Origin: an uncultured Candidatus Saccharibacteria bacterium
Lineage (GTDB): Bacteria > Patescibacteriota > Minisyncoccia > RBG-13-40-8-A
Assembly: GCA_965231075.1 (NCBI GenBank)
Contig: OZ246412.1
Location: forward strand, 321,587 to 385,586
Reading direction: 5' to 3'
DNA: 64,000 nt
Both the position numbers and the translations under genes were made by a program. Below are positions 2,415 through 60,673 of this stretch, in pieces (positions within the stretch are counted from its first letter, which is position 1; the number at the start of each line of letters is the position of its first letter). Below the pieces are notes generated by a model that worked only from the letters and a program-made list of their open reading frames with translations, was not told the DNA's origin and did not search any database.

Positions 2415-2442
2415 TTGACAAATTCTGTGTATATGTTATAAT
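2415..2442 (+). promoter_or_regulatory. Sigma-70 promoter TTGACA-N16-TATAAT of the TPM cassette
   Basis: TTGACA at 2415-2420, TATAAT at 2437-2442, then AAGGAGGT Shine-Dalgarno 6 nt before GTG 2470. Confidence 0.6.
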
Positions 2443-2469
2443 TAGGTCAATACCAAAAGGAGGTATCGC

Positions 2470-3219
2470 GTGAAAAAAACATTTGCTCTCTTTATCTTCG
2501 TTCTTCTGGTGTTCTCTGGAGCGGTTGCTCAGCAATTCCCAAAGAACACGGGCATGGTCAACGATTTTGCTAACATCATTCCTGATGATGTTCAGCAACA
2601 ACTCGAAGAAAACCTGAGAGAATTCAACGGTAAAACGTCGATTGAAATTGCCGTGGTAACGGTAAATTCTCTGGACGGCATGGTCATCGAAGACTACGCC
2701 GCAAGGCTCTTCAAAGAGTGGGGCATTGGCAAAAAAGACAACGATAACGGCGTTTTATTTCTCGTTGCAATGCGGGAGAAAAAAATGCGAATCGAAACCG
2801 GTTACGGTATCGAACCATTTTTAACCGATGCAACTTGCGGCAGGATAATCAATGACCAAATCGTACCGATCTTCAAGAGCGGCGCATACGCTTCGGGCAT
2901 TGCCCTAGGAATAAAAAAAATCATTGAAAAACTCGAGCAAGCCCACACAGAAGAACCTGAAGCACTGACTTCCGGCGACAAAAAAGTGAGGACGTTTAAA
3001 AATAACAGCGAAGTGGTTCTTATTGTCGTTCTCGTAATATTGTTGCTTGTTATAGTCGTGTTCGTTGCCTGGTTTGATGATGGCACGGGCGGTTCTAACG
3101 ATTCCGGCGGGGGGTTCATCAGTGGTAGTGGCTTTTCTTCGGGAGGTTCCGACTCTGGCGGAGGATTCAGCTTTGGTGGTGGATCGTCCGGAGGCGGAGG
3201 AGCCAGTGGTGGTTGGTAA
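2470..3219 (+). CDS. TPM-domain (TLP18.3/Psb32/MOLO-1, YgcG-like) protein with signal peptide, C-terminal TM helix and Gly/Ser-rich tail. GC-rich alien cassette.
   Basis: Motif GVLFLVAMREKKMRIETGYGIEPFLTD matches the TPM consensus. GC content is far above the surroundings. Perfect SD, GTG start. Confidence 0.7.
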   Translation: MKKTFALFIFVLLVFSGAVAQQFPKNTGMVNDFANIIPDDVQQQLEENLREFNGKTSIEIAVVTVNSLDGMVIEDYAARLFKEWGIGKKDNDNGVLFLVAMREKKMRIETGYGIEPFLTDATCGRIINDQIVPIFKSGAYASGIALGIKKIIEKLEQAHTEEPEALTSGDKKVRTFKNNSEVVLIVVLVILLLVIVVFVAWFDDGTGGSNDSGGGFISGSGFSSGGSDSGGGFSFGGGSSGGGGASGGW

Positions 3220-3325
3220 GTATTTAGAACGTTTAGGGGAAATCGCTTCGGCGATCTCCCCTATTTTTTTCTCGACCTTACGTTGGGATTTTGTCTTTAG
3301 ATTTTTGGCATGATAGAATCAATTT

Positions 3326-4666
3326 ATGGAAAATTATAAAGAATATTTCAAGAACAAAAAAATCATCATTATGGGACTCGGGCTACTTGGCCGAGGCATT
3401 GGCGTGGCAAAATTTTTGGCAAAACATGGCGCCGAACTTTTAATCACTGACTTGAAAACTGAACAACAGCTCGCTTCTTCCTTAAAACAACTCAAAAAAT
3501 TTAAAAACATTAAATATATTTTGGGTCAACATCGCATTGAAGATTTTCAACAAGGAGATATGTTAATCAAGGCCGCAGGGGTTCCGTTGGATTCAATTTA
3601 TCTTGCCGAGGCAAGAAAAAACAATATTCCCATCGAAATGGATGCTTCCTTGTTTGCTAAATTTACTAAAGCAAAAATTATTGGCATCACTGGCACGCGT
3701 GGAAAATCAACCGTAACACAAATGATTTATCATGGGCTGAAAAAATATTACAGAAAAGGAAATGTATTTTTGGGTGGAAATGTACGTGGACTTGCGACTT
3801 TGCCACTACTCGAAAAAGTTAAAGATAATGATGTTGTTGTTCTCGAGTTAGATTCTTGGCAATTACAAGGTTTTGGCGAAGCCAAAATTAGCCCACAGAT
3901 TGCCGTATTTACAACTTTTATGAACGACCACATGAATTACTATAAAAATGACATGCAAAGATATTTTGACGACAAGGCAAAAATTTTCGAACACCAAACC
4001 GAAAAAGATTTTCTAGTAATCAGTGAACAAGCGATGTTACAAATTAAAAAAAGGACCCAATACGGAAAAATAAAAAGTAAAATAACCGTTGTAAATGAGG
4101 ATGCAATTAGAAACCTAAAAACTAAATTAATTGGTGAACACAACAAAACTAATATTGCTTTAGCGGTTGAAGTTCTAAAATTAATGAAATTAAATCAAAA
4201 GCAAATTAAACAAGCAATTGCCACTTATCCTGGTGAGCCCGGACGATTACAAATGATTTTAAAAAGAAATGGAGTTGCTTATTACAACGACAATAATGCT
4301 ACTTCACCTGACGCTTGCGTAGCTGCCTTAAATTCTCTTTATAAAAACGAAAAAAATATTGTTTTGATTTGTGGTGGAGCTGACAAGGAATTTAATTTTA
4401 ATGATATGTTAGAAGTTATCGCCAATACAACTAAAAATGTTGTATTCATAAAAGGCACAGCAACTGATAAGATTTTAAATATTTTGCCGAAAGACTTTCC
4501 TGAATATGTTGTTGTTGATTCAATGCCATTGGCAGTTAAAGAAGCGAGAAAATCTGTTAAAAAAGGAGACGTTATTTTATTGTCTCCTGGTGCCGCATCA
4601 TTTGGTGTTTTCAAAAACGAATACGACCGCAATGATCAATTTGTAAAATACGTTAAAAAATATTGA
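3326..4666 (+). CDS. murD: UDP-N-acetylmuramoyl-L-alanine--D-glutamate ligase
   Basis: N-terminal IMGLGLLGRGIG Rossmann motif, GITGTRGKST P-loop, Mur ligase C-terminal domain. No SD; likely -10 TAGAAT 6 nt before the ATG. Confidence 0.85.
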   Translation: MENYKEYFKNKKIIIMGLGLLGRGIGVAKFLAKHGAELLITDLKTEQQLASSLKQLKKFKNIKYILGQHRIEDFQQGDMLIKAAGVPLDSIYLAEARKNNIPIEMDASLFAKFTKAKIIGITGTRGKSTVTQMIYHGLKKYYRKGNVFLGGNVRGLATLPLLEKVKDNDVVVLELDSWQLQGFGEAKISPQIAVFTTFMNDHMNYYKNDMQRYFDDKAKIFEHQTEKDFLVISEQAMLQIKKRTQYGKIKSKITVVNEDAIRNLKTKLIGEHNKTNIALAVEVLKLMKLNQKQIKQAIATYPGEPGRLQMILKRNGVAYYNDNNATSPDACVAALNSLYKNEKNIVLICGGADKEFNFNDMLEVIANTTKNVVFIKGTATDKILNILPKDFPEYVVVDSMPLAVKEARKSVKKGDVILLSPGAASFGVFKNEYDRNDQFVKYVKKY

Positions 4667-4691
4667 CAAATATCGCATATTATGATAAAAT
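4663..4691 (+). promoter_or_regulatory. Sigma-70 promoter TTGACA-N17-TAAAAT for the small membrane protein cassette
   Basis: TTGACA 4663-4668, TAAAAT 4686-4691, followed by GAGGAGGT SD and TTG start at 4724. Confidence 0.55.
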
Positions 4692-4723
4692 AAAGTAGTT
4701 CGAATCAATTAGAGGAGGTTCGT

Positions 4724-5017
4724 TTGATCGAACAACTGTGTGCTGTTTTCTCTGTTTCGGACGTGGTGGCGCAAGTGATCGGGTCGGTCAAGACCTGGAT
4801 CATCAAGATGGATCGGGCGTTCTTGCGTAAGGACCCCTTTCTACTGCTGACGGCGGTATCCTATGTCGTCGCGATGGCTATCGGGACGATGACGGGGCTG
4901 CTGTTCAGCAACGAACTCACCCAATTCATCGTCTTCTTATCGGCGTGGTTGGTGGTGTTCGTGGGCTTGGGCGTCACCTATTGGTTTTTCTTCGCCAAGC
5001 TGGCGCGGAAAAACTAG
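4724..5017 (+). CDS. Small (97 aa) GC-rich integral membrane protein of unknown function; alien cassette
   Basis: Three predicted TM helices, G/C-ending codon bias, perfect SD, TTG start, own terminator. Confidence 0.55.
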   Translation: MIEQLCAVFSVSDVVAQVIGSVKTWIIKMDRAFLRKDPFLLLTAVSYVVAMAIGTMTGLLFSNELTQFIVFLSAWLVVFVGLGVTYWFFFAKLARKN

Positions 5018-5030
5018 ACAGAGAGCGGAC

Positions 5031-5068
5031 AAAGGCCGAGTGGGAAACCACTCGGCCTATTTTATTTT
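5031..5068 (+). terminator. Rho-independent terminator of the 4724-5017 cassette
   Basis: AGGCCGAGTGG-GAAA-CCACTCGGCCT hairpin followed by TATTTTATTTT. Confidence 0.7.
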
Positions 5069-5085
5069 GCTAACGCATATTTAAA

Positions 5086-6396
5086 ATGTTAAAATTTAAA
5101 CTTATGCTAGATCACGTTAAAAAAATACATTTTATTGGGGTTGGAGGCGTGGGAGTTTCGGCAATTGCCAGAATGGCCCGACTTAAAGGCATAAAAGTTA
5201 CCGGCTCTGATGTTTCCATGAATAAAATGGCCGAAAGAATTCAAACCATTCACGGCAAAATTTTTATTGGTCACAAGCGCGAAAATTTACCCCAAGACAC
5301 TGATATGGTTGTTTATTCCCCCGCCATAACCGAAGATAATCCCGAAATGATTTACGCTAAAGAATTAAACATTCCCACCTATTCATATCCCGAAATTCTA
5401 GGAATAATTTCTAAGGACATGCACACAATTGCCGTTTCCGGAACTCACGGCAAAACTACCACCACTTCCATGCTTGCGGAATTATTTATTTATGGAAATT
5501 TAGATCCCACAGTTGTTGTTGGGGGTCTTTTAAAAAAACAAGAAGATAATTTTGTTTTGGGAAGCAGTAAACACTTTATTGTTGAGGCCTGCGAATATAA
5601 GGAGTCGTTTCTGAACTTAACTCCCAATATTTTAATAATTTTAAACATTGATAATGATCATTTAGATTATTATGGGACAATTGAAAATGTTAAAACCGCA
5701 TTCAAAAAATTAATCGAAAAAGTGCCCGATGACGGATATATAATTTACAACGGAGATGACGAAAATGTTTTAGATGTCTTGGGTAATGCAAGTACAAATG
5801 CTAAAAAATTAAATTATTTAGACGTAAAAGCCGAAATTAAACTTTCTGTTCCTGGCGAACATAATTTAAAAAATGCCAAAGCCGCATTTACGGTTGCGAG
5901 ATTAAACGGAATCACAGAAAATGTGGCCTTAAAAATTTTAAAAAATTATACCGGCACTTGGCGCAGGTTTGATTTTATGGGAAACACAAAAACTGGCGCT
6001 TTAATTTATAACGATTATGGCCATCATCCCACAGAAATTAAAGCGACTATTGCTGCAGCAGAACAATTATATTACGATAATAGAATTTTTGTTGTCTTTC
6101 AGCCACATTTATTTTCACGCACAAAACTTTTATTAAACGATTTCGCAACTGCTTTTGATTTGGCGGATGAAGTAATTATCACCGATATTTATGCTGCCAG
6201 AGAAAAAGATGATCACTCAATCCATGCTAAAGATTTAGTTGATGCGATAAATAAAAAAATCATTAAAGCAAAATACGTTAATGATTTTGATAATATTAAA
6301 AAATATTTAGAACTTAAAGCACAAAAAGACGACATCATCCTCCTCCAGGGCGCGGGGGATGTTTACAAGATTGGAGAAGAAATTGTAAAAAAATAA
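5086..6396 (+). CDS. murC: UDP-N-acetylmuramate--L-alanine ligase
   Basis: HFIGVGGVGVSAIA N-terminal motif, GTHGKTTTTSM P-loop, Mur ligase domains. Confidence 0.85.
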   Translation: MLKFKLMLDHVKKIHFIGVGGVGVSAIARMARLKGIKVTGSDVSMNKMAERIQTIHGKIFIGHKRENLPQDTDMVVYSPAITEDNPEMIYAKELNIPTYSYPEILGIISKDMHTIAVSGTHGKTTTTSMLAELFIYGNLDPTVVVGGLLKKQEDNFVLGSSKHFIVEACEYKESFLNLTPNILIILNIDNDHLDYYGTIENVKTAFKKLIEKVPDDGYIIYNGDDENVLDVLGNASTNAKKLNYLDVKAEIKLSVPGEHNLKNAKAAFTVARLNGITENVALKILKNYTGTWRRFDFMGNTKTGALIYNDYGHHPTEIKATIAAAEQLYYDNRIFVVFQPHLFSRTKLLLNDFATAFDLADEVIITDIYAAREKDDHSIHAKDLVDAINKKIIKAKYVNDFDNIKKYLELKAQKDDIILLQGAGDVYKIGEEIVKK

Positions 6397-6398
6397 AT

Positions 6399-7424
6399 TT
6401 ATTTAATACCCTCTCCGCCGAACCATTTTTTGTATAGCGTGTCGTAAAGTCCGCTCTCTTGGACAGTTAAGATTGCACGATTTATTTTCTCTCTTAATGG
6501 GCTGTTGTTTTCTAGAACAAAACCGTAATCTTGTTTATCAAATAACTCTCCTACAATTTTAACTTTTCCCGCTCCTTCATTAAGGGCATAATATTCTAAA
6601 ATTGGTGCATCAAACACAACGACTTCAACTTCGTTGTTTTTTAATTTTTCGTATGCTTCTTCTATCTTAATCACAGGTACAATTATCGCTCCCAAACTTT
6701 TTAATACCGGTTCAGTGGTTGTCCCTTGGACCGTAGCAACAACTTTTCCCGACAAATCTTTGGGGCCCTCGATATTAAGTTTTATTTTTCTGGTTGTTAA
6801 AAATGCCGTAAATTGTCCGATAATCAACCCTAGCGCAGCCAGTTTAACTAATTGTCCGAATTGAACAACAATAAACCCCGCCCAAGATTGAACCTTGTAA
6901 ACTGTTATCATTGCCGGAGAACCAAGAATCATTGATAAAGAAAACCAAATTGCCTGAAAAATTCCTGGAAAATACGTTTTTGAAAATGTTTCGGCACTTT
7001 TTTCTGTTAACCACAACACATTACCAAAAACAATAATTATTAGAGCCAAAAGAAGTATTGGTTTTAATAATTTTTTATATCCTTGTGTAAAAAATGTCTT
7101 TATCGTACTACCAATATTTACTCTCGATCTGTCTTTTGACAACAGAATACGCAACCCGGAATGAAAGGTTGCGTGTGAAAAATCAATAACTTCTTCGCGT
7201 TTCTCGTTAATCGTTATCGAAGCCATAGCAATGTCTGCCTTTTTGTCGGCAACAAGTGGAATCAATTCTTGAAAATTATATTTGCTATATTCAAAATCTG
7301 TTTGGATTTCCTTGGCAATCATTTCCCATAATTCAATTTCAAACCCAGAATATTTTCCATCTTTCTCAAAAACGAAAGGAGAAAGATTTGTCACCGCGAT
7401 TTTTAATTTATTTGTCATATACAT
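6399..7424 (-). CDS. Ionotropic-glutamate-receptor-like ligand-gated channel: a split periplasmic amino-acid-binding (SBP_bac_3) domain interrupted by an M1-pore-M2 channel module
   Basis: Lobe 1 (LKIAVTNLSPFVFEKDGKYSGFEIELW...ADIAMASITINEKREEVIDFSH), TM/pore segment, lobe 2 (GKVVATVQGTTTE...VVVFDAPILEYY...YGFVLENNSPLREKINRAILTVQESGLYDTLYKKWFG). Confidence 0.65.
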   Translation of the reverse strand: MYMTNKLKIAVTNLSPFVFEKDGKYSGFEIELWEMIAKEIQTDFEYSKYNFQELIPLVADKKADIAMASITINEKREEVIDFSHATFHSGLRILLSKDRSRVNIGSTIKTFFTQGYKKLLKPILLLALIIIVFGNVLWLTEKSAETFSKTYFPGIFQAIWFSLSMILGSPAMITVYKVQSWAGFIVVQFGQLVKLAALGLIIGQFTAFLTTRKIKLNIEGPKDLSGKVVATVQGTTTEPVLKSLGAIIVPVIKIEEAYEKLKNNEVEVVVFDAPILEYYALNEGAGKVKIVGELFDKQDYGFVLENNSPLREKINRAILTVQESGLYDTLYKKWFGGEGIK

Positions 7425-7440
7425 TTATTATATCATAAAC

Positions 7441-7470
7441 AAAAAAATCCCGTAATGTGGGATTTTTAAG
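7441..7470. terminator. Bidirectional hairpin terminator between tRNA-Ala and the channel gene
   Basis: AATCCCGTAATGTGGGATT flanked by A7 and T5. Confidence 0.55.
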
Positions 7471-7544
7471 TGGTGGACCATAGGAGAATCGAACTCCTGT
7501 CCTCCGGATGCAAACCGGGAGCTCTACCACTAAGCTAATGGCCC
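7471..7544 (-). tRNA. tRNA-Ala (anticodon UGC), CCA encoded
   Basis: GGGCCAT acceptor with G3:U70, anticodon loop TTTGCAT, T-arm GGAGTTCGATTCTCC, 3' CCA. Confidence 0.85.
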
Positions 7545-7556
7545 TCAAATAAAATT

Positions 7557-7630
7557 TGCGCGTGCATGGACTCGAACCATGGACCTCGTCATTATCAGTG
7601 ACGCGCTCTAACCGCCTGAGCTACACGCGC
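7557..7630 (-). tRNA. tRNA-Ile (anticodon GAU), no encoded CCA
   Basis: GCGCGTGTAGCTCAGGCGGTTAGAGCGCGTCACTGATAATGACGAGGTCCATGGTTCGAGTCCATGCACGCGC; the classic rRNA spacer tRNA. Confidence 0.85.
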
Positions 7631-7638
7631 GAAAAATC

Positions 7639-7797
7639 TTAGGCCTTGCCTAAAATTTTAAACATTCCTGTTCCACAAACTGGACAAACACCTTTTAATG
7701 CTCTTCTGTCCCCTCCCTTTCCTTTCATTTTAACTTCTTTGGCGTCTTTCATTTCTTGTTTTGCTCTACACTTAACACAATATGCAATATCTGCCAT
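7639..7797 (-). CDS. 52-aa C4 zinc-ribbon protein encoded between 16S and tRNA-Ile (MADIAYCVKCRAKQEMKDAKEVKMKGKGGDRRALKGVCPVCGTGMFKILGKA)
   Basis: Below the 60-aa ORF-track cutoff; found by hand translation. CxxC...CxxC, highly basic. Own promoter TTGATT-N18-TATAAT (about 7841-7870, minus strand). Stop lies 4 nt from tRNA-Ile. Confidence 0.5.
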   Translation of the reverse strand: MADIAYCVKCRAKQEMKDAKEVKMKGKGGDRRALKGVCPVCGTGMFKILGKA

Positions 7798-7870
7798 AAA
7801 AATAAAATTTATTAATTATTAATAAACTTACTTTATTATACAGCTAAAATAATAATAAAATCAAGCACAA

Positions 7871-7906
7871 ATAAAAAAATCGTCTAATAGACGATTTTTT
7901 TATTTC
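7871..7906 (-). terminator. Hairpin terminator downstream of the 16S 3' end
   Basis: AATCGTCTA-AT-AGACGATT followed by T7ATTT on the minus strand (and A-run/T-run on both sides). Confidence 0.55.
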
Positions 7907-8042
7907 GAATTCTTTATGGTTTTCCCGATACTTATTATTTGTTTAGTACAAATAATTAAAAAACTTTTTATGTTACTGCCTTATCGGCAAATAATCGACT
8001 CTTACTTAATAAATTTTATTTACTAAGTAAAAATATTTTCCA

Positions 8043-9503
8043 TCCACAGGTTCCCCTACGGATGCCTTGTTATGACTTCACCCTAGTCACCGAATTTACC
8101 TTAGGACTCTGAAATCAGAGCACGTCAGGTACTCCCGGCTTCTCTGGTGTGACAGGCGGTGAGTACAAAGCTTGAGAACGTATTCACCGCAGCGTAGCTG
8201 ATCTGCGATTACTAGCGATTCCGGCTTCATGGGGTCGAATTGCAGACCCCAATCCGAACTGGGGCCGATTTTGATGAGATTGGCTCCATCTTACGACTTG
8301 GCGACTCATTGTATCGGCCATTGTAGCGCCTGTGTTGCCCAGGGTATCAAAGGGCCATGCTGATTTGGCGTCATCCCTACCTTCCTCCTCGTATCACGAG
8401 GCAGTCTTGTCTGACACTTATAACAGACAACAGGGGTTGCGCTTGTTACCCGAATTAACGGAGCAACTCACGCCACAAGCTGACGACAACCATGCAGCAC
8501 CTGTTCTAGTGTCCTTGTAGAAGACCCGACTTTCATCAGGCTTTCACTAGAATTTCAAACCCTGGTAAGGTTCTCCGCTTACCGTCGAATTAAACCAGAC
8601 GCTCCACCGCTTGTGCAAGCTCCCGTCTATTCCTTTGAGTTTTAGTCTTGCGACCGTACTTCCCAGGCGGAGTACTTAACGCGTTAGCTTCGTCACCTGA
8701 AGGGTCGATACTTCAGACAACTAGTACTCATAGTTTAGGGCGTGGACTACAAGGGTATCTAATCCTTTTTGCTCCCCACGCTTTCGTCTCTCAGGGTCAG
8801 AAATGCACCAGCCAAATGCCTTCGCCTTTGGTATTCCCTAAGGTATCAACGGATTTCACCCCTACTCCTTAAGTTCTATTGGCCTCTCACACTCTCTAGT
8901 CTGACCGTTTCCCCTGCAGTTTCGATGTTGAGCATCGAAATTTAACAGAAGACGTATCAAACGCCCTACAGACGCTTTACGCCCAGTAATTCCGGACAAC
9001 GCTTGGGGTACTCGTATTACCGCTGCTGCTGGCACGAGTTTAGCAACCCCTTATTCATAGAGTACACTCAAAAATTGCTCCTCTATAAAAGTACTTTACA
9101 TCCCGAAGGACTTCTTCATACACGCGGCGTCGCTCCATCAGACTTTCGTCCATTGTGGAAGATTCTCGACTGCAGCCTCCCGTAGGAGTAAGGCCCGTAT
9201 CTCAGTGCCATCGTTGGGGAACACGCTCTCACGCCCCCTACCCGTCATCGCCTTGGTAAGCCATTACCTTACCAACTAGCTGATAGGACGCAGGCCACTC
9301 TCTCACCATCTTATCTTGCGATAAGACTTTACTCTTGCGAGACCATCGGAAATTATCTTGCCTTTCGGCAAGTTATGTCCGAGTCAGAGGGATGTACCTA
9401 CGTATTACTAACTCGTTCGCCATGGGTCTAAACCCATTCGACTTGCATGCCTAATCCACGCCGCCAGCGTTCGTCCTGAGCTAGGATCAAACTCTCAATA
9501 AAG
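8043..9503 (-). rRNA. rrs: 16S rRNA, complete, about 1.46 kb
   Basis: 5' end AGAGTTTGATCCTAGCTCAGGACGAACGCTGGCGG (reverse complement at about 9470-9503). 3' end ...GTCATAACAAGGCATCCGTAGGGGAACCTGTGGATGGA (8043-8080). The 530 loop reads GTGCCAGCAGCAGCGGTAATAC (9014-9035), carrying the C-to-A change in the 515F site reported for Patescibacteria. Confidence 0.9.
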
Positions 9504-12719: not shown

Positions 12720-12721
12720 AA

Positions 12722-22154: not shown

Positions 22155-22200
22155 AAAATAATAAAAAAATGAAGTCCTACCGGCTATCCGGTAGGACTTC
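22155..22200 (-). terminator. Terminator of the GC-rich dCMP-deaminase/thyX cassette
   Basis: GAAGTCCTACCGG-CTAT-CCGGTAGGACTTC followed by T7ATTATTTT on the minus strand. Confidence 0.7.
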
Positions 22201-22208
22201 TTCGATTT

Positions 22209-22487
22209 TTAAAGACCGAGTCGTTTTTTGAGTTCCTCCTCACCCTCAATCCTGATAGGATCAATCTTAAACGGTTCGCCCTCTAGTGGTTCACAGATAC
22301 TTTCTCCTGATCTGCGTAAATCACAGAGTTTGCCGTTTATCCCGTGTTCCAGGACTTTTGGGCTTACCCCCGTCCCCATGTCGATGTCTTCGACGGTTTC
22401 ACCGTGTACACTGCAACAGGAATAGGTTCCATCCGGTTCTGGCTTGAAAAACAATCGATACATGCAGGTAAAGCACTGTCCTTTCAT
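22209..22487 (-). CDS. 92-aa Cys-rich protein of unknown function, translationally coupled to thyX (ATGA overlap); GC-rich
   Basis: MKGQCFTCMYRLF...YSCCSVHGETVED...; seven Cys, GC-rich codons. Confidence 0.45.
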   Translation of the reverse strand: MKGQCFTCMYRLFFKPEPDGTYSCCSVHGETVEDIDMGTGVSPKVLEHGINGKLCDLRRSGESICEPLEGEPFKIDPIRIEGEEELKKRLGL

Positions 22488-23200
22488 TTCGAGTACCCCT
22501 TTGTTGCCATTTCCTGAAAATCCTTAAACAAAGATGGTGCTTGCTGCATCACGATATCGTAAAACAGTTTATGGAGCCGCCGAATCTCCCACTCGGCATC
22601 TTGAGCCAATCGAAGATTAAACAGATACCGCAGAGATCTGGCGTTGCAATAAGCGTAGCATGGCGTGCACCAGAAAACCGGCATGTTTTTCCTCGAATCT
22701 TGCTTTGTGGCACCCAGAGCGATTTTGGAATCATATTCCGCGATTGCTCTTTTGGCGGTTTTTTCATCGATGCTCAGAAGTTGTTTGACCGAATCTTCAT
22801 CTTCGACGTAATGATAGGTATTGTAAACAAATCTGTTCTGACTTGCCGAGATAAATCTCGTGCTTCTGAATGTCCATCCAATACCGATTCTGTGCCGAAC
22901 CCATTGGTTCTGTAGACTTTTGGTAATACCGTCTACGTCAAAGACGAAAGATAGTGCCTCAAGAGGAGTGTGATGCCCCTTCTTGATTAGCCACTCGTTC
23001 AGTCTTAGGTCGTCGATTATTGTCCCCAAAGATTCGTGGCTTCTTCGTGCGGTGAAGGCCGGAAGAGTCTCGGGTGTAACCAACTCGATGTACCTGCCAA
23101 CCGGTTGTGTCATTGCCACCAATTCAGCAACCGGTTCGACGTTTCTGAACAACCCTTCCCTCAAATGTTTCCATTTGTCGATGTCCGCGTATTCGATCAT
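22484..23200 (-). CDS. thyX: Flavin-dependent thymidylate synthase
   Basis: RHRIGIGWTFRSTR (ThyX RHR...S signature), 238 aa, GC-rich. Confidence 0.8.
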   Translation of the reverse strand: MIEYADIDKWKHLREGLFRNVEPVAELVAMTQPVGRYIELVTPETLPAFTARRSHESLGTIIDDLRLNEWLIKKGHHTPLEALSFVFDVDGITKSLQNQWVRHRIGIGWTFRSTRFISASQNRFVYNTYHYVEDEDSVKQLLSIDEKTAKRAIAEYDSKIALGATKQDSRKNMPVFWCTPCYAYCNARSLRYLFNLRLAQDAEWEIRRLHKLFYDIVMQQAPSLFKDFQEMATKGYSK

Positions 23201-23201
23201 G

Positions 23202-23663
23202 TTAAACCTCCTCAGTATCGGTGATTTGTATCAATTCGATGCCAACTCCGGCAAAAAGTTCGGAAACCTGCGGAAACTCTTCTTCATAGCGCTTGACGTA
23301 AAAAACTCTTTTGACGCCCAGGTTGTTAAGATGCTTGGCACAGTCGTAACACGGCGAATAAGTGCAATAGAGATCGCAATCCGATAAATTAATGCCATTT
23401 TTCGCGGCATTTACAATGGCATTCATTTCTGCGTGAGCACCTCTGCACCTTTTTGATCCTGAAGGAAGAAATTTTCCATCGACTTTTTTGGCGCACCCCA
23501 CCGCGTCACAGTGTTTATCGCCGGCAGTTGGACCATTATAGCCAACCTGCAAGAGTTGCTTTCCACGAACAAAAACGGCGCCAATTTGATAAAGCTGACA
23601 TCTTGATTTTTTTGCCAGAAGATTAACCATCTCCACGAATAGTTTCTGCCAAGAAATAGCCAT
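23202..23663 (-). CDS. dCMP deaminase (cytidine/deoxycytidylate deaminase family)
   Basis: HAEMNAI zinc motif and SPCYDCAK second zinc ligand pair; 153 aa; GC-rich. Confidence 0.8.
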   Translation of the reverse strand: MAISWQKLFVEMVNLLAKKSRCQLYQIGAVFVRGKQLLQVGYNGPTAGDKHCDAVGCAKKVDGKFLPSGSKRCRGAHAEMNAIVNAAKNGINLSDCDLYCTYSPCYDCAKHLNNLGVKRVFYVKRYEEEFPQVSELFAGVGIELIQITDTEEV

Positions 23664-23744
23664 GTTTTTTTGTCCTTTCTTGTTAAATTGTAAGGAGCTT
23701 TCCCCCTTTATTTATAAAAATCTCATCTTATCAATGAGATTTTT

Positions 23745-25377: not shown

Positions 25378-25424
25378 TAAAAAACAAAATAAAAAGAGGG
25401 TGGAACCTTGCGGAACCACCCTCG
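25378..25424 (-). terminator. Terminator of the 25459-26034 cassette
   Basis: GAGGGTGG...CCACCCTC stem followed by T5ATTTTGTTTT on the minus strand. Confidence 0.6.
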
Positions 25425-25458
25425 TGCTTTGCCTTAAAAGAACACGTCTGTTCAGCGT

Positions 25459-26034
25459 TCAAAGCTTAACGCTGAAACTCGCTTCTCCGGTCCAGCCAGA
25501 GTTGATCGTGTCCCAAGCGAACCAGAACTGGATCGCCCCGAACTTGACCGTAGGACCGATTTGGAAGAAAATCGTCTTTTCTCCAAACGTCCCGCAACCG
25601 GACCAGCGGAGACCCCAGCCGTCCTTGCCAACCGTGTGACGAACGAACCAGATCCCCTTACCATCGCGGTCGATCCCAACTTCGTTGACGAACGCCCCGA
25701 ACAGGCCGAAGGCCGAAATCACGGGCGTCACATCCATGGTCACGGAATTGACCAATTCCTTGGTCTTCTTCGCGGCCAGATTGAAGTGGGGACCAATGGC
25801 TACCTGGACCGATCCGATCTTGCCCAGCTTGAATGCCGGGGGACCGAATTTGGTCAGCAGAGACCCGGACCCGGGCCAGGTCAGCATGAAGTAGTAGTTC
25901 ATGCCCTTAGGCGCGTCGTGGAAATACCACGCATTCGCCTTCGAAGGAAAGACCTGGAACTGAGCCCGGTCTTCCGCCACGGCCATCGGAACCATGAACA
26001 GGACGAGCAGAACAACGATCATAAGATTTTTCAT
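25459..26034 (-). CDS. GC-rich secreted beta-rich protein (191 aa, signal peptide, aromatic/Gly-rich; ends ...FSVKL); alien cassette
   Basis: AGAGGAG SD, consensus promoter at 26074-26102, G/C codon bias. Alternating aromatic strands suggest a beta-barrel or beta-sandwich. Confidence 0.55.
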   Translation of the reverse strand: MKNLMIVVLLVLFMVPMAVAEDRAQFQVFPSKANAWYFHDAPKGMNYYFMLTWPGSGSLLTKFGPPAFKLGKIGSVQVAIGPHFNLAAKKTKELVNSVTMDVTPVISAFGLFGAFVNEVGIDRDGKGIWFVRHTVGKDGWGLRWSGCGTFGEKTIFFQIGPTVKFGAIQFWFAWDTINSGWTGEASFSVKL

Positions 26035-26073
26035 CAGAAACTCCTCTCTTGTTTAGTTGTAGGGTACTCTTAT

Positions 26074-26102
26074 ATTATACACCCGATTACATGATTTGTC
26101 AA
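26074..26102 (-). promoter_or_regulatory. Perfect consensus sigma-70 promoter TTGACA-N17-TATAAT
   Basis: Minus strand TTGACAAATCATGTAATCGGGTGTATAAT. Shares the CGGGTGTATAATAT core with the promoter at 60645-60673. Confidence 0.6.
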
Positions 26103-31987: not shown

Positions 31988-32015
31988 TTGACTTTCTCAT
32001 AAATTTTGTTACACT
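31988..32015 (+). promoter_or_regulatory. Candidate promoter TTGACT-N16-TACACT for the GC-rich non-coding island
   Basis: 31988-31993 TTGACT, 32010-32015 TACACT. Confidence 0.35.
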
Positions 32016-32019
32016 TAAA

Positions 32020-32476
32020 TTAGCGGTCCGATGGAGGAGGTGATCCAAGCATCTGACTTCGGTCCGATCCCACTGAAAGGAGAGTTATGACAATTTGATT
32101 GTCTAAGGTCGAGGCATTCGGTAAAATCCCACTGACCGGCCAAAGGAAGAGAGGAGGATACTGTTTGCTTGCGTAGGTGTACCTTCAAAGACATCGCCCT
32201 AATATAGGGGCACCGAGGATTGGTCTTAGGACCTCCGGACAATAGTCCCAGTGTATCGCGTTTCTTCGGAAATGCGAATGACTAGAGGATGAGTCCCCTC
32301 GAACAAAAGAGGCAATTGCCTAACGTTCACTTTTGCGTGCCGTGTGCACTGCATAAAGTACTCAAGAACCGTTAGGGTTCGCCTTACCTCCGGGTAAAAA
32401 TTAAAACCCGACAGGTCGCACCATAGGGGCCAAAAAAACAGGGCTTCTCCCGGCGGGAGAAGCCCTTTATTATTTT
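32020..32476 (+). ncRNA. Candidate structured ncRNA of unknown class (about 450 nt, GC-rich, no ORF longer than 75 aa)
   Basis: GC is far above the local background, as for rRNA and tRNA in this genome. UUCG-loop hairpins on the plus strand (GAC-UUCG-GUC; CGCGUUUC-UUCG-GAAAUGCG). Internal repeat AUCCCACUGA..GG..AAAGGA. Ends in a strong bidirectional terminator GGGCTTCTCCCG-GCG-GGAGAAGCCC (32441-32465). Begins with GGAGGAGGTGATCCAAGC. Confidence 0.4.
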
Positions 32477-45529: not shown

Positions 45530-45580
45530 AAAATAAAAAAAGAGGGGCGCCTAAGGCGCCCCTCTTTTTATTTTTATTCT
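45530..45580. terminator. Bidirectional terminator between lysS and the ATPase gene
   Basis: A-run, AGAGGGGCGCC-TAA-GGCGCCCCTCT, T-run. Confidence 0.7.
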
Positions 45581-47118
45581 TTTTTATCACCCACTGCTTT
45601 TTTGATTGCCTCGCGGACACTGGCTAGATCGATTTCCATTTTTTTCTTGACCTGTGATGGTGGGGGCATTTGTGGTTTTTTTTCTCGTTCTTTTTGTAAA
45701 CAATTCGCACAGTAAACTGGTCTTTTTCCGTCGGGAGCAAAAGCAACTTTAGTTTTCTTGCCACAATTTGCGCAAATAGTTTCGAATCTTTTCCCGCTTT
45801 TTTCCTCCTCGGGCTCGAGTCCTTCATTCCATCTCGCAATCTTTTCTTCAACAATCTTTCTCGGCACAGCATATCTTTCTCGAGAAATTTTAATTGTCGT
45901 TTCTTTATATGATTTATCAGGAACTGGAGGAATTTTGGTCGTGGAAGCACTGAAAGCGCGCGAAGCGAATCCATTAACCATTAATTTCAAATAGATATTA
46001 TAATTGGGAATATTGACTAAATCATCAATGGTAAATGCTGGCAGAAATTCTTTTTCCAAAAATTCCGCATCGTCGGCACCCACCCTGAATGTAATTATTG
46101 TTCCCACGTTTCCAAAAATTGCGTCTCTTACTTTTGTATTTCTACCCTTATCACCCATGGTTTCAAGTTGCGCAACATATTGGTGGGCAAGGATTAAACA
46201 TAATTTATATTTTCTGGCTTCTGATAATGTGGTTGCAAACGCATCAGTAGCAAAGTTTTGAAATTCATCAACATAAAGATAAAAATCCTTTCTTTCTTCT
46301 TCGGCCATATCGGCTCTTTCCATGGCTGCTAATTGTAATTTGGTAATCACTAACGCGCCCAATAACTGTGAAGCATCTTCTCCAATTTTGCCCTTGGGCA
46401 AATTAACAATCAAAATCTTTTGATTGTCCATTATCTCTCGCATATTAATCGAAGATTTGACTTGCCCGATAATATTTCGAATAAGTGGCGTAGTAATGAA
46501 TTGACCAACTTTATTTTGAATTGGTGCCACTGCTTCTTCTCTGAATTTGTCGGGATATTTGGCAAATTCATTATTCCAAAAAGATTTAACTCCTGGATCG
46601 GTAATTTTTTCTACTACCTTTTGTCGGTAATCTTTGTCAGCCAATAAACGATTAATGCCTAAAAGCGTTGCTCCGGGATATTCCAACAGCGCTAAGATTG
46701 AATTTCTTAAAATGTACTCCATTCTTGCCGACCAAACATCCGGCCAAATCTTTTTAAATACGCCCATTAATCCCGATGCAATCAGATAGCGATATTCTGA
46801 ATCCACTTTTTCCATAATATTAAAAGTTATGGGAAAATCAACATCAGCAGGATTAAAATAAATTACGTCATTTACCCTGTTTGAAGGAATATAATCCAAC
46901 ATTTTTTCAGCAAACTCACCGTGTGGATCAACAACTGCCAAACCACTTCCATTCTGAATGTCTTGAATCGCCATGTTCTTTAATAATTCTGACTTACCCA
47001 CACCAGTTTTTCCAATAATATAAGTATGCTGACGCCTGTCTTTGGTTTTAATACCAAATCTGACCTTATGATTACGAAAGCTGGTTTCACCTAGGATTGT
47101 AATATCTTGTTCACTCAT
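45574..47118 (-). CDS. 514-aa soluble HerA/VirD4-like (DUF87) P-loop ATPase with a C-terminal zinc ribbon; split version
   Basis: IIGKTGVGKSE...VVDPHGEF; FYLYVDEFQNF; ILAHQY; C-terminal CANCGKK...YCANC. Confidence 0.7.
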   Translation of the reverse strand: MSEQDITILGETSFRNHKVRFGIKTKDRRQHTYIIGKTGVGKSELLKNMAIQDIQNGSGLAVVDPHGEFAEKMLDYIPSNRVNDVIYFNPADVDFPITFNIMEKVDSEYRYLIASGLMGVFKKIWPDVWSARMEYILRNSILALLEYPGATLLGINRLLADKDYRQKVVEKITDPGVKSFWNNEFAKYPDKFREEAVAPIQNKVGQFITTPLIRNIIGQVKSSINMREIMDNQKILIVNLPKGKIGEDASQLLGALVITKLQLAAMERADMAEEERKDFYLYVDEFQNFATDAFATTLSEARKYKLCLILAHQYVAQLETMGDKGRNTKVRDAIFGNVGTIITFRVGADDAEFLEKEFLPAFTIDDLVNIPNYNIYLKLMVNGFASRAFSASTTKIPPVPDKSYKETTIKISRERYAVPRKIVEEKIARWNEGLEPEEEKSGKRFETICANCGKKTKVAFAPDGKRPVYCANCLQKEREKKPQMPPPSQVKKKMEIDLASVREAIKKAVGDKKE

Positions 47119-48386
47119 ATAATTGGAAGATCGGTTGGCGGACTACCCTTCTTCGCTCCGATCTTAGATAGTTTTTCGGCTTCAACAAATGTTCCTGGAA
47201 TATGAAAAATTGTCGCCAATTCTTCGGTATTAAAGATAAATCCTCTGGTTTTAATTTTATGTCCAGGAAAAACTCTTTTTTTAAACAATCCAACAAAAAA
47301 TCTTTTTTGACCAATTTCTCTTCTCTTTTTAAATATTTTCCCTCTGCCCGGAGTAACTTTTTTATTGGCCTTAAATCCATTTAAATTTAAAGTATTAAAT
47401 TGTCTAAAAAATCCTGCCGCAACAGTGGGCTTGTCTTTATTAAAAATTTCTTTCGGCGCCCAATACATAAATCGGATCATGGTCTTAAAACCAATTTTGG
47501 CGATGTTTTGTTCTATCGCTAAGACAATCTCCTTTTGTCCAGGTGTTAGAAATGGAGTTAGCGCTTTTACTTCTTCTTTCTTTTTTTCTCCTTCTCCGCC
47601 AAAACCAAAAAGTTCAGTTATTCCAAATCCGAGTGCGGTAAGCCAACTTTTACCTTCCTCTACAATCAATAATCCTTTTTTCTTGTCTGCTTTTACCTCT
47701 TTGCCAACTAACTTACCAACCAACTTTTCTCCTGCTTCCTTCCATTTATCATCTGCGGGATTAATGAGAATGTGTATCCCAATACTCTCTCTTGGGTCTA
47801 GACTACTCAAAAATTCAAATAGACCAGCGATTGGATCGGTTCTTTCTTCTTCCTCTTTGTCTTCGAAAAACACCGGATAAGTTCTTATAGGATAAGCATC
47901 GGGTTTGTTTAAAATCAGTTCCGTGCCCCAGGCATCAAAATCTTTGGTCGGCGTACCTGCCGGGATGTCGGAAACATAATCTTCTGCCTCAATGATTTCG
48001 ATTTGTGGATATTGTGCATATAAATGTGATTCAATTAAATTTCTGTATTTGGATTCGGTTCTGATATAAAAACGAATCTCTCCCCCGTGTCCTAAAATTT
48101 CAACACTAAACCAAGGCGGTAATGTGCCCTTTAAATATCGATCTTTTTTCTTGGGATTCTTTTCTGTGGCATGAAGACCAGCGAAAAACTGTTCCATTGC
48201 CTTGGGAGTTTTAATCACCTCGCGAGGAAATTTTATCTCTAGCATTATCCATTTTAGTCCCATTAAATACTTCTTAGTCATATAGTTAAGCCAGTATTTA
48301 TTTAAAAATAAAAAAAGAGCTACCGGTGCAATAATCCACCAAAAGCTCGAAAATATATCTTTATAGATATTTAAAATTTCCTCCAT
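47115..48386 (-). CDS. 423-aa membrane-anchored protein homologous to the N-domain of the fused ATPase at 35547-37994
   Basis: N-terminal TM helix. Collinear blocks LEIKFPREV / LVRIPREA, YPQIEI / YPKAIV, NTEELATIFHIPGT / NSEEIASVFHFPLT. ATGA overlap with the downstream ATPase. Confidence 0.65.
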   Translation of the reverse strand: MEEILNIYKDIFSSFWWIIAPVALFLFLNKYWLNYMTKKYLMGLKWIMLEIKFPREVIKTPKAMEQFFAGLHATEKNPKKKDRYLKGTLPPWFSVEILGHGGEIRFYIRTESKYRNLIESHLYAQYPQIEIIEAEDYVSDIPAGTPTKDFDAWGTELILNKPDAYPIRTYPVFFEDKEEEERTDPIAGLFEFLSSLDPRESIGIHILINPADDKWKEAGEKLVGKLVGKEVKADKKKGLLIVEEGKSWLTALGFGITELFGFGGEGEKKKEEVKALTPFLTPGQKEIVLAIEQNIAKIGFKTMIRFMYWAPKEIFNKDKPTVAAGFFRQFNTLNLNGFKANKKVTPGRGKIFKKRREIGQKRFFVGLFKKRVFPGHKIKTRGFIFNTEELATIFHIPGTFVEAEKLSKIGAKKGSPPTDLPII

Positions 48387-52075: not shown

Positions 52076-52104
52076 TTGACAAAAGGCAACCAAAATGTTA
52101 TACT
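52076..52104 (+). promoter_or_regulatory. Promoter TTGACA-N17-TATACT of the 52150 cassette
   Basis: Followed by AAGGAGGT SD 5 nt before the ATG. Confidence 0.55.
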
Positions 52105-52149
52105 TATGGTGTAGTTGAAATACACTACTATTCTGAAAAGGAGGTCGAT

Positions 52150-52545
52150 ATGACCAAGAAAATCCTTTACGCTCTTTTCATCGTGTTCGTGGTCGGTATC
52201 CTGGCCAACGCCGGGTACCACATCGGCGAGATCTGGGGTTCGGTCCAGGGGGACGTCGTCGACCCCACGTTCGTCCAGAGCTTTCTGGCCGGACCGGACA
52301 AGGTTCTCGATTTCGAGAAGGACATCGATTCGACAGTCCAGGGAATCGTCTTCACGTTACTGGGAATCCCCTTCCTGGTCATCGTGCTTCTTCTCTGGAT
52401 CGTCTACTTCCTGTTCTTCGGAGAGCTGTTCCGGTTCATCGGGGTTCTCCCGTCGATCCTGGCCACGCTGGCCAGCATCGTGATCGCGGTGATCTGCCTC
52501 AAGCGGAGCCGCGAGAACAAGACCACAACCACGACCACGACCTGA
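52150..52545 (+). CDS. GC-rich 131-aa membrane protein with a poly-Thr C-terminus; alien cassette
   Basis: About 3 TM helices, ...ENKTTTTTTT, G/C codon bias. Confidence 0.55.
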   Translation: MTKKILYALFIVFVVGILANAGYHIGEIWGSVQGDVVDPTFVQSFLAGPDKVLDFEKDIDSTVQGIVFTLLGIPFLVIVLLLWIVYFLFFGELFRFIGVLPSILATLASIVIAVICLKRSRENKTTTTTTT

Positions 52546-52569
52546 TCCTTCGGTCCTCGGAGGGGGACC

Positions 52570-52612
52570 AAATGGGCCAAGCGCAAGCGCTTGGCCCTAT
52601 TTTATTTCTTTA
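52570..52612 (+). terminator. Terminator of the 52150 cassette
   Basis: GGGCCAAGCGC-AA-GCGCTTGGCCC then TATTTTATTTCTTT. Confidence 0.7.
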
Positions 52613-56750: not shown

Positions 56751-56756
56751 GTGTTT

Positions 56757-57735: not shown

Positions 57736-57745
57736 TTAACAACAA

Positions 57746-58030: not shown

Positions 58031-58072
58031 ATAATCTATATTATATTTTTTATAAATTACGATGTCAATGTC

Positions 58073-59866: not shown

Positions 59867-59891
59867 TAATTTAAATACAACAAATTACGTC

Positions 59892-59964
59892 GCCTGAGGA
59901 GCTTGGAAGGTAAAAACCCCAATACTTGGTATTGAATGGGTACCGGTTCCAGAGCTCCTCAGGC
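59892..59964 (-). promoter_or_regulatory. Large 5'-UTR hairpin (12-bp perfect stem) in the leader of the metallopeptidase gene
   Basis: GCCTGAGGAGCT...AGCTCCTCAGGC with internal substructure; candidate promoter TTGACA-N18-TATACT at 59983-60012 (minus strand). Confidence 0.4.
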
Positions 59965-60029
59965 AACACAATCTCCTAATTAAGTATAACCGAAATAAAT
60001 AATGAGTGTCAAACCCCGACGCAAGGTCG

Positions 60030-60076
60030 GGGTAAATAAAAAATGTCCTCGTCGGGCCGAAGCCCAACAAGGACAA
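60030..60076 (-). terminator. Terminator of the 60080-60610 cassette, preceded by a second GC hairpin
   Basis: GTCCTCGTCGGGC-CGAA-GCCCAACAAGGAC followed by a T-run on the minus strand; CCCCGAC-GCAAG-GTCGGGG at 60014-60032. Confidence 0.65.
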
Positions 60077-60079
60077 AAC

Positions 60080-60610
60080 CTATTTCAGAAAATTCCACCA
60101 AAGTTCGAAAGTGCAGACGAGGAGCATTAGGGCCGTACTAATCAGAATTTCCTTTCTGATTTTGGTCGGATAACCCCACTTTCTGACCCATGACTTGCCC
60201 CACGGATAGAAGAAGGACGCATAAGGATAAGTTTCATCGTTTTTCTGGAAACGATCGATCATCATGTGTACGAACCAGAACGTAAACGGAACCCACCATA
60301 AACGGTGAAAAAATATTAATCCGCACACAAACGACATGATTGCTCCGGGCCAAAGATGAAACCAGCATGCAGGGATTTTTACTCCCGGAGACGGCTTGCC
60401 AACATCACCGCCCCTGAGAAATCGCGGAATACGCACGAAAAAAATGTCCGCGACATAACTCGGCGAGGTGAAGTGATCGGCAAAGTCCATTACCGAACCC
60501 CAGAAATAAATGAGTGCGAGCTGGAGAATAGAAAACTCCATCCCGAACCCGAAAAGCAGAATCGCCCGAAACGCGAACGTAATGTCAAAGTGCGTCATTG
60601 GTGCGGCCAT
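60080..60610 (-). CDS. GC-rich 176-aa Trp/Phe-rich membrane protein; alien cassette
   Basis: AAAGGAGGTG SD 5 nt before the ATG; perfect consensus promoter at 60645-60673. Confidence 0.55.
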   Translation of the reverse strand: MAAPMTHFDITFAFRAILLFGFGMEFSILQLALIYFWGSVMDFADHFTSPSYVADIFFVRIPRFLRGGDVGKPSPGVKIPACWFHLWPGAIMSFVCGLIFFHRLWWVPFTFWFVHMMIDRFQKNDETYPYASFFYPWGKSWVRKWGYPTKIRKEILISTALMLLVCTFELWWNFLK

Positions 60611-60644
60611 CCTGCACCTCCTTTCTTAAATTCTAATAATATAT

Positions 60645-60673
60645 ATTATACACCCGAAACACAATTATGTCAA
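60645..60673 (-). promoter_or_regulatory. Perfect consensus promoter TTGACA-N17-TATAAT
   Basis: Minus strand TTGACATAATTGTGTTTCGGGTGTATAAT, a near-twin of the promoter at 26074-26102. Confidence 0.6.

Follow-up and report, generated by a model that had tools for sequence, protein, structure and literature searches.

Six GC-rich, Shine-Dalgarno-led gene cassettes in a Parcubacteria genome whose 16S rRNA lacks the anti-Shine-Dalgarno sequence

Six GC-rich islands and their expression signals

We analysed 64 kb of the genome of an uncultured bacterium of the candidate phyla radiation (CPR), positions 321,587 to 385,586 of contig OZ246412.1 (GCA_965231075.1). This whole stretch is called the window below, and the subject of this work is a set of six GC-rich gene cassettes (c1 to c6) that it contains. 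The GC content of the window is 36.4%, and a sliding GC profile revealed eight GC-rich spots, at the start of the 23S rRNA gene, at the 16S rRNA gene, in the region at 32.0-32.5 kb, which is devoid of open reading frames (ORFs), and at the six islands. For comparison, related loci (numbered L) were gathered around SecA (80 genomes) and around MurD (80 metagenome contigs), and by exact-protein look-ups. The nearest SecA loci, with 74-76% identity, belong to Candidatus Portnoybacteria/Paceibacterota metagenome-assembled genomes (MAGs), one cassette protein clusters with a protein of a Portnoybacteria MAG, and the 16S rRNA of L097 is 94.7% identical to that of the window. By its sequence matches the organism is a Portnoybacteria-like member of the Parcubacteria, within the CPR.

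All six islands named in the initial annotation were found in place. Their composition, Shine-Dalgarno (SD) motifs and promoters were assessed on eight cassette genes and 51 native genes of the window. Whole-cassette GC amounts to 0.45-0.54, compared to 0.34-0.35 in the 1.5-kb flanks, an excess of 10 to 18.5 points; the 15-20 points initially announced apply to c4 and c5, the other four cassettes staying somewhat below. The announced preference for G- and C-ending codons is confirmed: GC at third codon positions (GC3) ranges from 0.42 to 0.84 in the cassette genes and is 0.303 ± 0.031 in the native genes, with a maximum of 0.39. The cassettes thus display the atypical base composition and codon usage of a transferred islet (GC3 z = 3.8-17).

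Each island is equipped as a transcription unit of its own. Upstream of c1, c2, c4, c5 and c6 we found TTGACA followed, after 16 or 17 nucleotides, by TATAAT, TAAAAT or TATACT, and the window holds 11 promoter sites of this type where 2.3 are expected. The c3 candidate is weaker (TTGATA-N17-TATTAT) and precedes a hairpin, probably the terminator of trxB; the near-consensus promoter initially attributed to every cassette is therefore clear for five of them and less so for c3. An SD motif lies 4-6 nucleotides before the start codon of c1 (AAGGAGGT), c2 (AGAGGAGGT), c4 (GAGAGGAG), c5 and c6 (both AAAGGAGGT), and GAGGAGGT precedes thyX of c3. The generalisation of an SD to all cassettes fails within c3, whose first gene has AAAGGA only and whose third gene has no SD. 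A GGAGG-type motif 4-10 nucleotides upstream of the start, as required for SD initiation, is present in c1, c2, thyX, c4, c5 and c6. GGAG or GAGG occurs at positions -17 to -4 in 6/8 cassette genes and in 2/51 native genes (Fisher p = 1.6e-5), and among all window ORFs of at least 70 amino acids (aa) the six with a strong SD are all cassette genes. A GC-rich hairpin terminator closes each of the six units, as had been claimed, with folding energies of -15 to -34 kcal/mol, UUCG or GNRA loops and a following U-run.

Cassette c1 (2415-3306, + strand) carries a TTGACA-N16-TATAAT promoter at 2415-2442, its SD at 2457-2464, a coding sequence (CDS) at 2470-3219 with a GC3 of 0.49 and a terminator hairpin at 3235-3270 (-19.7 kcal/mol). 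Its product combines a TPM domain (Pfam TPM, E = 7e-44) with a signal peptide, one transmembrane segment and a Gly-rich tail. Cassette c2 (4663-5103, +) has its promoter at 4663-4691 (-10 element TAAAAT), SD at 4711-4719, CDS at 4724-5017 (GC3 0.79) and terminator at 5036-5068; it encodes a 97-aa protein with two hydrophobic segments. Cassette c3 (22155-23700, - strand) is an operon for a dCMP deaminase (23202-23663), ThyX (22484-23200, SD at 23206-23213) and a 92-aa Cys-rich protein (22209-22487), with GC3 values of 0.42-0.52 and a terminator at 22165-22200. It is flanked by the native genes trxB/grx and the dCTP deaminase gene dcd, and together they form a coherent nucleotide-metabolism neighbourhood. 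Cassette c4 (25378-26102, -) has a TTGACA-N17-TATAAT promoter at 26074-26102, SD at 26041-26048, CDS at 25459-26034 (GC3 0.74) and terminator at 25385-25425, and encodes a 191-aa protein with a signal peptide. Cassette c5 (52076-52612, +) lies on the strand opposite to its neighbours secD and rsgA; a TTGACA-N17-TATACT promoter (52076-52104) and an SD (52137-52145) precede the CDS of a 131-aa membrane protein (52150-52545, GC3 0.84), which ends in a double hairpin terminator (52546-52612). Cassette c6 (60033-60673, -) encodes a hydrophobic, aromatic-rich protein of 176 aa, with a TTGACA-N17-TATAAT promoter at 60645-60673, SD at 60616-60624, CDS at 60080-60610 (GC3 0.56) and terminator at 60035-60075. 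The cargo thus comprises a TPM-domain protein, the small hydrophobic proteins of c2, c5 and c6, none of which has a family match, two nucleotide enzymes with a Cys-rich companion, and a beta protein with a signal peptide.

The structure of this last protein, the c4 product, was modelled with AlphaFold2 from nine family members (pLDDT 86, pTM 0.76), as a 12-stranded up-down beta-barrel. The top Foldseek matches are all outer-membrane barrels, of 10-12 strands and larger, including a designed 12-strand transmembrane barrel, KdgM, NanC and FapF, and the protein is accordingly predicted to be a 12-stranded transmembrane porin-like barrel. With the KdgM/NanC porins (PDB 4fqe, 4pr7, 2wjq) it shares a signal peptide and a predicted 12-stranded up-down barrel of about 170 residues (TM-score 0.52-0.59); it differs from them in sequence (9-14% identity), in having no Pfam or NCBIfam match and in being encoded by a CPR bacterium. 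Such an outer-membrane-type fold was unexpected in the CPR, of which the few cells characterised to date are monoderm (PMC8871954).

The GC-rich region at 32.0-32.5 kb was considered as a seventh protein cassette and rejected, since it is ORF-less; we describe it as an unclassified structured RNA of about 450 nucleotides (31988-32470, +), with a TTGACT-N16-TACACT promoter, a hairpin terminator, a GC content of about 0.48 and a minimum free energy z-score of -4.0. No Rfam family, the RNase P and tmRNA models included, matched its body at E <= 1, and ARAGORN detected no tmRNA. Its first ~330 nucleotides are about 95% identical to L087, where the adjacent genes show 70-83%. At its 5' end stands GGAGGAGGUGAUCC, which is complementary to the canonical 3' tail of 16S rRNA, and two ACCUCCGG motifs lie inside. 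Just upstream of c6 is a candidate small RNA (sRNA) of about 75 nucleotides (60690-60788, -), which has a TTGACA-N17-TAATAT promoter, contains a GCAA-loop hairpin and ends in an intrinsic terminator; it is conserved in L007 (7940-8030), where c6 is absent. On the other side of c6, a 597-aa gene is preceded by a structured 5' leader of about 110 nucleotides (59870-60012, -), with a TTGACA-N18-TATACT promoter and a 12-bp closing stem (GCCUGAGGAGCU...AGCUCCUCAGGC). This leader is kept in L007 (8030-8215), apparently with compensatory changes as judged by eye, and may be a riboswitch; an Rfam scan of it returned a non-significant Mg-II match only (E = 0.99). Finally, the window encodes two TraG/TrwB-like coupling-protein ATPases (35547-37994 and 45574-48386, both -), each associated with a DUF8128 domain and conserved in L091, which may belong to a type IV secretion or DNA-transfer system.

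Translation start and promoters in the native genes

The SD motifs of the cassettes stand in a genome that appears to have abandoned this mode of initiation. The 16S rRNA gene (8028-9502, -; Rfam small-subunit match over model positions 1-1533) ends in GGAUGGAAAAUAUUUUUA in place of GGAUCACCUCCUUA, so that the CCUCC complementary to the SD, expected at the 16S 3' end for SD initiation, is missing from the window copy. A hidden anti-SD was ruled out by sequence search: CCUCC occurs nowhere in the 1475 nucleotides of this gene, the single 16S copy of the window, or in the downstream spacer. The related 16S tails lack CCUCC in 19/19 cases, those of L093 and L097 being identical to the window's. 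Judged from these tails, anti-SD loss is clade-wide. The initial contrast between SD-led cassettes on one side and SD-less native genes with an anti-SD-less 16S on the other (6/8 versus 2/51) is thus upheld. That about half of the Parcubacteria have lost the anti-SD is already published (Tsurumaki et al. 2022, RNA 28:1041, PMC9297842); in its SD and anti-SD passages that paper reports an rRNA trait, shared by the window and the 19 related sequences, and does not mention mRNAs. We also considered an AU-rich alternative SD that would pair with the altered 16S tail, and rejected it, as such motifs are not enriched (25/51 native genes for about 20 expected).

The 16S and 23S genes are unlinked in the window (1-9502): about 7.6 kb separate them, a stretch that holds the genes for tRNA-Ile and tRNA-Ala and seven protein genes, among them c1 and c2. 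The 23S gene has a TTGACA promoter of its own at 673-645 (-), and murD lies close to 16S in many related contigs as well.

The native genes carry a different start signal. TAnnnT is found 4-12 nucleotides upstream of the start in 22/51 of them, compared to 19% of random positions, and the extended -10 element TGnTAnnnT occurs 4-12 nucleotides before the ATG in 11/51, compared to 1.1%. Because this extended -10 element lies only 4-12 nucleotides from the ATG, these data suggest that leaderless mRNAs are the default for native genes in this lineage. Canonical -35/-10 promoters also precede the 23S rRNA gene, the 450-nucleotide noncoding RNA (ncRNA), the sRNA and the structured leader. The promoters of the cassettes are therefore of the resident type used for leadered transcripts, and not imported. 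In the secA-secD gap of L007 (12600-12760, -) and of L008 (13000-13100, -) we observed further short GC-rich transcripts with a TTGACA promoter, hairpin and terminator; many small RNAs of the clade appear to be expressed from canonical promoters.

A similar association was observed beyond the window. About 6% of 1,856 genes in the related loci have an SD-like motif; -35/-10 promoters accompany 31% of these, compared to 5.5%, and their GC3 is higher (p = 9e-6). When the window is included (1,914 genes), a GC3 difference (dGC3) above 0.15 is seen in 18% of SD-bearing genes and in 2% of the rest, and the median length is 200 aa for SD-bearing genes compared to 295 aa.

Empty sites, shared sites and relatives of the cassettes

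Abrupt switches of composition at six places in a metagenome-derived genome raise the suspicion that assembly or binning stitched GC-rich pieces of other organisms into an AT-rich contig. This explanation, which ranks last among those we considered, is refuted by independent contigs. Logan assemblies of SRR12133403 match the window at 100% over 1-7613 and 42150-62545, and a contig from a separate sequencing run (Logan DRR784864) spans both c1 junctions at 100%, so that the junctions of c1, c2, c5 and c6 are all reproduced independently. In addition, MAGs or contigs of other projects have c3, c4 and c5 at the same sites, and the junctions are functional, providing a new stop codon for murD and a new promoter for murC.

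Syntenic sites of relatives lack c1, c2 and c6, and hold c3, c4 and c5 (in L002, L087 and L091, respectively). In L095, L096 and L097, the segment corresponding to window 2414-3306 is replaced by about 10 nucleotides and the leaderless promoter of murD is kept. The genes murD and murC are translationally coupled, with no insert (TAAAATG), in L093, L095, L096 and L097, while 441 bp separate them in the window; here the TTGACA of the c2 promoter overlaps and supplies the new murD stop codon, and at the other end a new -10 element, TGtTAAAAT, lies about 7 nucleotides before the murC ATG at 5086. In L007, nothing separates the terminator of the conserved sRNA from the ACCCCGA hairpin, which in the window follows c6. 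For each of these three inserts the 5' edge maps 0-2 nucleotides from the -35 hexamer, and the neighbouring genes are intact. By comparison with these relatives, c1, c2 and c6 are clean, demonstrable insertions, and the description of the cassettes as autonomous modules with their own promoter and terminator is borne out. The murD-murC site of L106 (816-1449) contains an unrelated GC-rich cassette on the opposite strand, with a TTGACA-N17-TATCAT promoter, a AGAGGAGG SD, a hairpin terminator and, as product, a basic, coiled-coil-tailed protein of 157 aa without family match. On the contigs compared, the murD-murC junction is a hot spot of cassette insertion.

The other three cassettes show a different history. 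Where they occur in relatives, their GC excess and signals are the same as in the window, and the flanking proteins are 68-96% identical. The c4 orthologue at the same site in L087 is 68% identical (GC3 0.76) with a ratio of nonsynonymous to synonymous substitutions (dN/dS) of 0.13; promoter, 5' untranslated region (UTR), SD and terminator are conserved. Identity at four-fold sites is down to 0.33, for 0.27 expected by chance and 0.32-0.66 in the flanks, and the GC content of these sites (GC4) is 0.67 in both genomes, compared to 0.16-0.40 in the flanks. Next to secD in L091 stands a c5 orthologue with 34% protein identity and, in nucleotides, 57% over the CDS, 75% over the 5' UTR and 82% at the 3' end; regulatory ends are better conserved than the CDS in these orthologue comparisons. 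Cassette c3 is also found between trxB and dcd in L002 (the Portnoybacteria MAG GCA_026395495.1, 1612-2881), with the same GC excess, thyX SD and terminator, in flanking DNA that is 80-84% identical. The deaminase of the window shares 91% of its residues with the L002 copy, the adjacent ThyX 57%, and this ThyX is 29 aa shorter. This mosaic divergence suggests allele replacement inside the cassette. A different deaminase (31% aa identity) occupies the site in L087, with TTGACG/TATGCT, AGGAGG and a GC3 of 0.34; related genomes can carry, at one and the same site, cassettes that are unrelated or alleles that have diverged strongly. From these alignments c3, c4 and c5 are old and stably kept, and would predate the split from these relatives, because they occupy the same sites although silent sites are nearly randomised. 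The initial claim of recent acquisition is contradicted for these three, GC3 and signals having remained unchanged.

A search for a GC-rich donor was unsuccessful, whether by protein searches (c1, c4), in plasmids and phages (c4, c6), in IMG/VR (c5, c6) or among phages for ThyX. Among TPM proteins, the closest to c1 shares 57% identity and is itself accompanied by an SD and a terminator, on the CPR-like contig L173, where it lies directly upstream of a c6-like gene (37% identity) and type IV pilin-like genes are also found; the remaining TPM matches reach at most ~50% and come from many phyla. A c6 copy at least 90% identical is present on an ENA contig. The c4 family is very small, with five matches in 5.8 billion proteins and seven (E <= 0.001) when 1.84 billion representatives were searched exhaustively with a profile. 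The contexts recovered (L087, L089, L174, L175, L176) are all AT-rich, SD-less CPR-like contigs, and in 6/6 members a TTGAC-type promoter and an AAGGAG-type SD precede the gene and a hairpin terminator follows it, among neighbours without SD. Five of the six members, that of the window among them, have a GC3 of 0.63-0.76; in L175 it is 0.35. On this 541-kb CPR contig (5900-6720), an identical promoter and 5' UTR of ~90 nucleotides (TTGACT...TACAAT...AAGGAGGT) stands before two consecutive cassette genes, one of which is the c4-family member with the GC3 of 0.35. For c4 and c6, tblastn found nothing in PLSDB plasmids or INPHARED phages, IMG/VR contained no relatives of c5 and c6, ThyX is at most 31% identical to phage proteins, and a PHROGs scan returned generic dCMP-deaminase and ThyX families only. 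Close homologues in a donor lineage of matching composition are thus lacking for c1 (best 57%) and for c4 (AT-rich CPR-like contigs only), and the high-GC donor proposed at the outset, perhaps the host of an epibiotic cell, received no positive support. These results come close to the outcome that the initial annotation had itself named as evidence against its claim, best homologues in other AT-rich CPR genomes of the same composition; c1, c2 and c6 may nevertheless be of more recent, foreign origin.

No means of mobility was detected either. A k-mer comparison of the cassette flanks revealed no target-site duplication, shared end motif or attC-like repeat, and none of the neighbouring genes scanned had a Pfam match to an integrase or recombinase. 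This comparison yielded 15 identical nucleotides common to the c4 and c6 promoters (CGGGTGTATAATATA), and the end-motif search a CGACCTTnCGTnGGG motif, which at c6 is part of a native hairpin also present in L007.

Comparison with known systems helps to situate the cassettes. Phage morons are autonomous extra transcription units in lambdoid phage genomes, a concept due to Hendrix and Juhala. Like them, the cassettes are single genes or small operons with a sigma-70-type promoter and a factor-independent terminator, differ in composition from their neighbours, are polymorphic in presence and, for c1, c2 and c6, are inserted between genes adjacent in relatives. Unlike morons, they reside not in a phage or prophage but among chromosomal housekeeping genes (murD/murC, secA/secD, trxB/dcd, the rRNA spacer), and they persist across genus-level divergence with an SD in an anti-SD-less lineage. 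Integron cassettes are likewise small single-gene modules exchanged at fixed sites between related genomes, whereas those described here have their own promoters and terminators at scattered sites, no shared attC-like 3' element in the k-mer comparison of their flanks and no integrase by Pfam among the neighbours. In Bacteroidetes, translation is SD-independent, the anti-SD is kept but occluded, and a few genes such as rpsU retain a strong SD as exceptions. The window resembles them by the lack of genome-wide SD use next to a small gene set with strong SDs, but the anti-SD sequence itself is gone from its 16S, and the occlusion mechanism therefore cannot apply. Lawrence and Ochman are said to have modelled the amelioration of compositionally atypical transferred islets. 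Our cassettes have the GC and GC3 of such outliers, clean empty sites and accessory envelope cargo; on the other hand c4 and c3 show no visible amelioration, no donor was found, promoters and leaders have the resident composition, and mobility genes, tRNA targets and flanking repeats are absent.

A proposed persistent cassette pool and its alternatives

On this basis, we propose that the cassettes belong to a long-lived pool of autonomous accessory units that circulates within the anti-SD-less Parcubacteria and is expressed in the CPR cell, a reading to which we give a probability of about 0.55. The units share one layout: a -35/-10 promoter, then a leader that is AT-rich and contains an SD, the GC-rich CDS and a strong intrinsic terminator. 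The cassettes would ultimately be foreign, from SD-using and GC-richer sources, would have been inserted by illegitimate recombination followed by trimming, and could swap alleles by homologous recombination through conserved flanks or UTRs. In the CPR cell they would give rise to leadered mRNAs, stable and capped by a hairpin, whose translation would start independently of the SD on the unstructured AU-rich leader. Selection or continual exchange within the pool would maintain composition and SD, which would not be the eroding remnants of a recent import from such a host as had been proposed, rich in GC. Polarised substitutions in c4 point to such a maintained composition, with 17 changes from G/C to A/T and 15 in the reverse direction where amelioration would predict about 7:1; saturation of the sites weakens this test, and the same caution applies to the lack of composition decay toward the genome between the c4 orthologues.

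Several points weigh against this proposal. It is drawn from 64 kb of one genome and about 2.4 Mb of relatives. We found no mechanism that would hold GC3 at 0.6-0.8 in a genome at 0.30, nor, in the flanks and neighbouring genes compared, a recombinase, target-site duplication or shared end motif. An SD devoid of function would not readily explain why all c4 relatives keep a strong one. For c4 and c5, vertical descent is not fully separable from repeated allele replacement at the same site. The c1 family is widespread outside the CPR, and some cassettes could have a non-CPR source. Lastly, expression of the cassettes is read from their sequence.

An alternative is that the SD-like leader and the GC-rich body form an expression class that functions in the CPR cell, both being under purifying selection. 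The SD is kept in 6/6 c4-family members and in the c5 and c3 orthologues despite turnover of the adjacent bases, and the SD of L175 (AAGGAGGT) is perfect while its GC3 of 0.35 is near background; relatives have SD- and promoter-bearing genes of native composition; UTRs are conserved better than CDSs, GC4 is stable though silent sites are randomised, and SD, -35/-10 promoters and higher GC3 go together across the clade. The leader could be recognised by a protein or another RNA acting as an SD reader independent of the anti-SD, could stabilise the mRNA, or could sharpen the contrast between an unstructured start and a structured body. However, no candidate reader was found, the 16S contains no CCUCC and shows no enriched alternative pairing with its AU-rich tail, the native housekeeping genes (secA, secD/F, lysS, serS) are AT-rich and without SD, and the orthologous UTR pairs are very few. 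We hold this explanation to be rather unlikely, though ahead of the remaining ones. Recent horizontal gene transfer (HGT) from a high-GC, SD-using donor, possibly the host, would make GC and SD the unameliorated signatures of that donor. It would account for the strong contrast, with G- and C-ending codons of all kinds, for the clean empty sites of c1, c2 and c6 in the available relatives, and for TPM, dCMP-deaminase and ThyX families widespread outside the CPR. It is at odds with c3, c4 and c5, which would be older than the split, with silent sites nearly randomised and GC3 unchanged, and with a GC3 that does not track residence, c1, absent from relatives, being at 0.49 and the shared c4 at 0.74. 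No close donor is at hand (57% at best for c1; a c4 family of 7 in 1.84 billion, all CPR-like and AT-rich), the plasmid, phage and IMG/VR searches gave nothing, and promoters and leaders are AT-rich and of resident type. We regard it as unlikely, and favour it slightly less than selection on SD and GC.

A more radical idea is that SD and GC-rich codons are tuned for, and kept by selection for, the ribosomes of an SD-using partner to which DNA or RNA would be delivered, or with which the genes would be exchanged, with the barrel destined for the partner's envelope. The analogy is with Agrobacterium, whose T-DNA genes carry plant-type expression signals. SD and codon usage do mismatch the resident translation system, the predicted outer-membrane-type 12-stranded barrel is surprising next to the few monoderm CPR cells described, and the window holds the two TraG/TrwB-like coupling ATPases. 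But we have no evidence of nucleic-acid export and the idea is wholly a matter of inference; the c3 enzymes are housekeeping ones of nucleotide metabolism, and their native neighbours have related functions, the promoters are of the resident type that also serves the 23S rRNA and ncRNAs, and the Sec signal peptides of c4 and c1 would allow ordinary secretion by the CPR cell. Such a transfer is highly improbable, only the refuted assembly artefact ranking lower. The long-lived clade pool remains our preferred explanation, and within it most products are envelope proteins (the porin-like barrel, the TPM protein and the small membrane proteins), which fits accessory roles, probably in partner interaction.

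Anti-SD loss and HGT islets were known before; what appears new is a class of persistent, exchangeable, GC-rich and SD-led cassettes enclosed by promoter and terminator. Full-text keyword searches gave no description of SD-bearing, leadered, often GC-rich cassettes in largely leaderless, anti-SD-less Parcubacteria. The locus provides a concrete handle on two questions, how anti-SD-less Parcubacteria start translation and what becomes of incoming genes built for an SD. If SD and GC are selected, these bacteria must use them by an unknown route, or foreign ribosomes read them. If they are neutral, amelioration in the CPR would be far slower than assumed, which would affect the dating of HGT in reduced genomes. 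The cassettes also mark a pool of accessory genes directed to the envelope, the predicted porin-like barrel among them, and such genes may take part in the interaction of this uncultured lineage with a partner.

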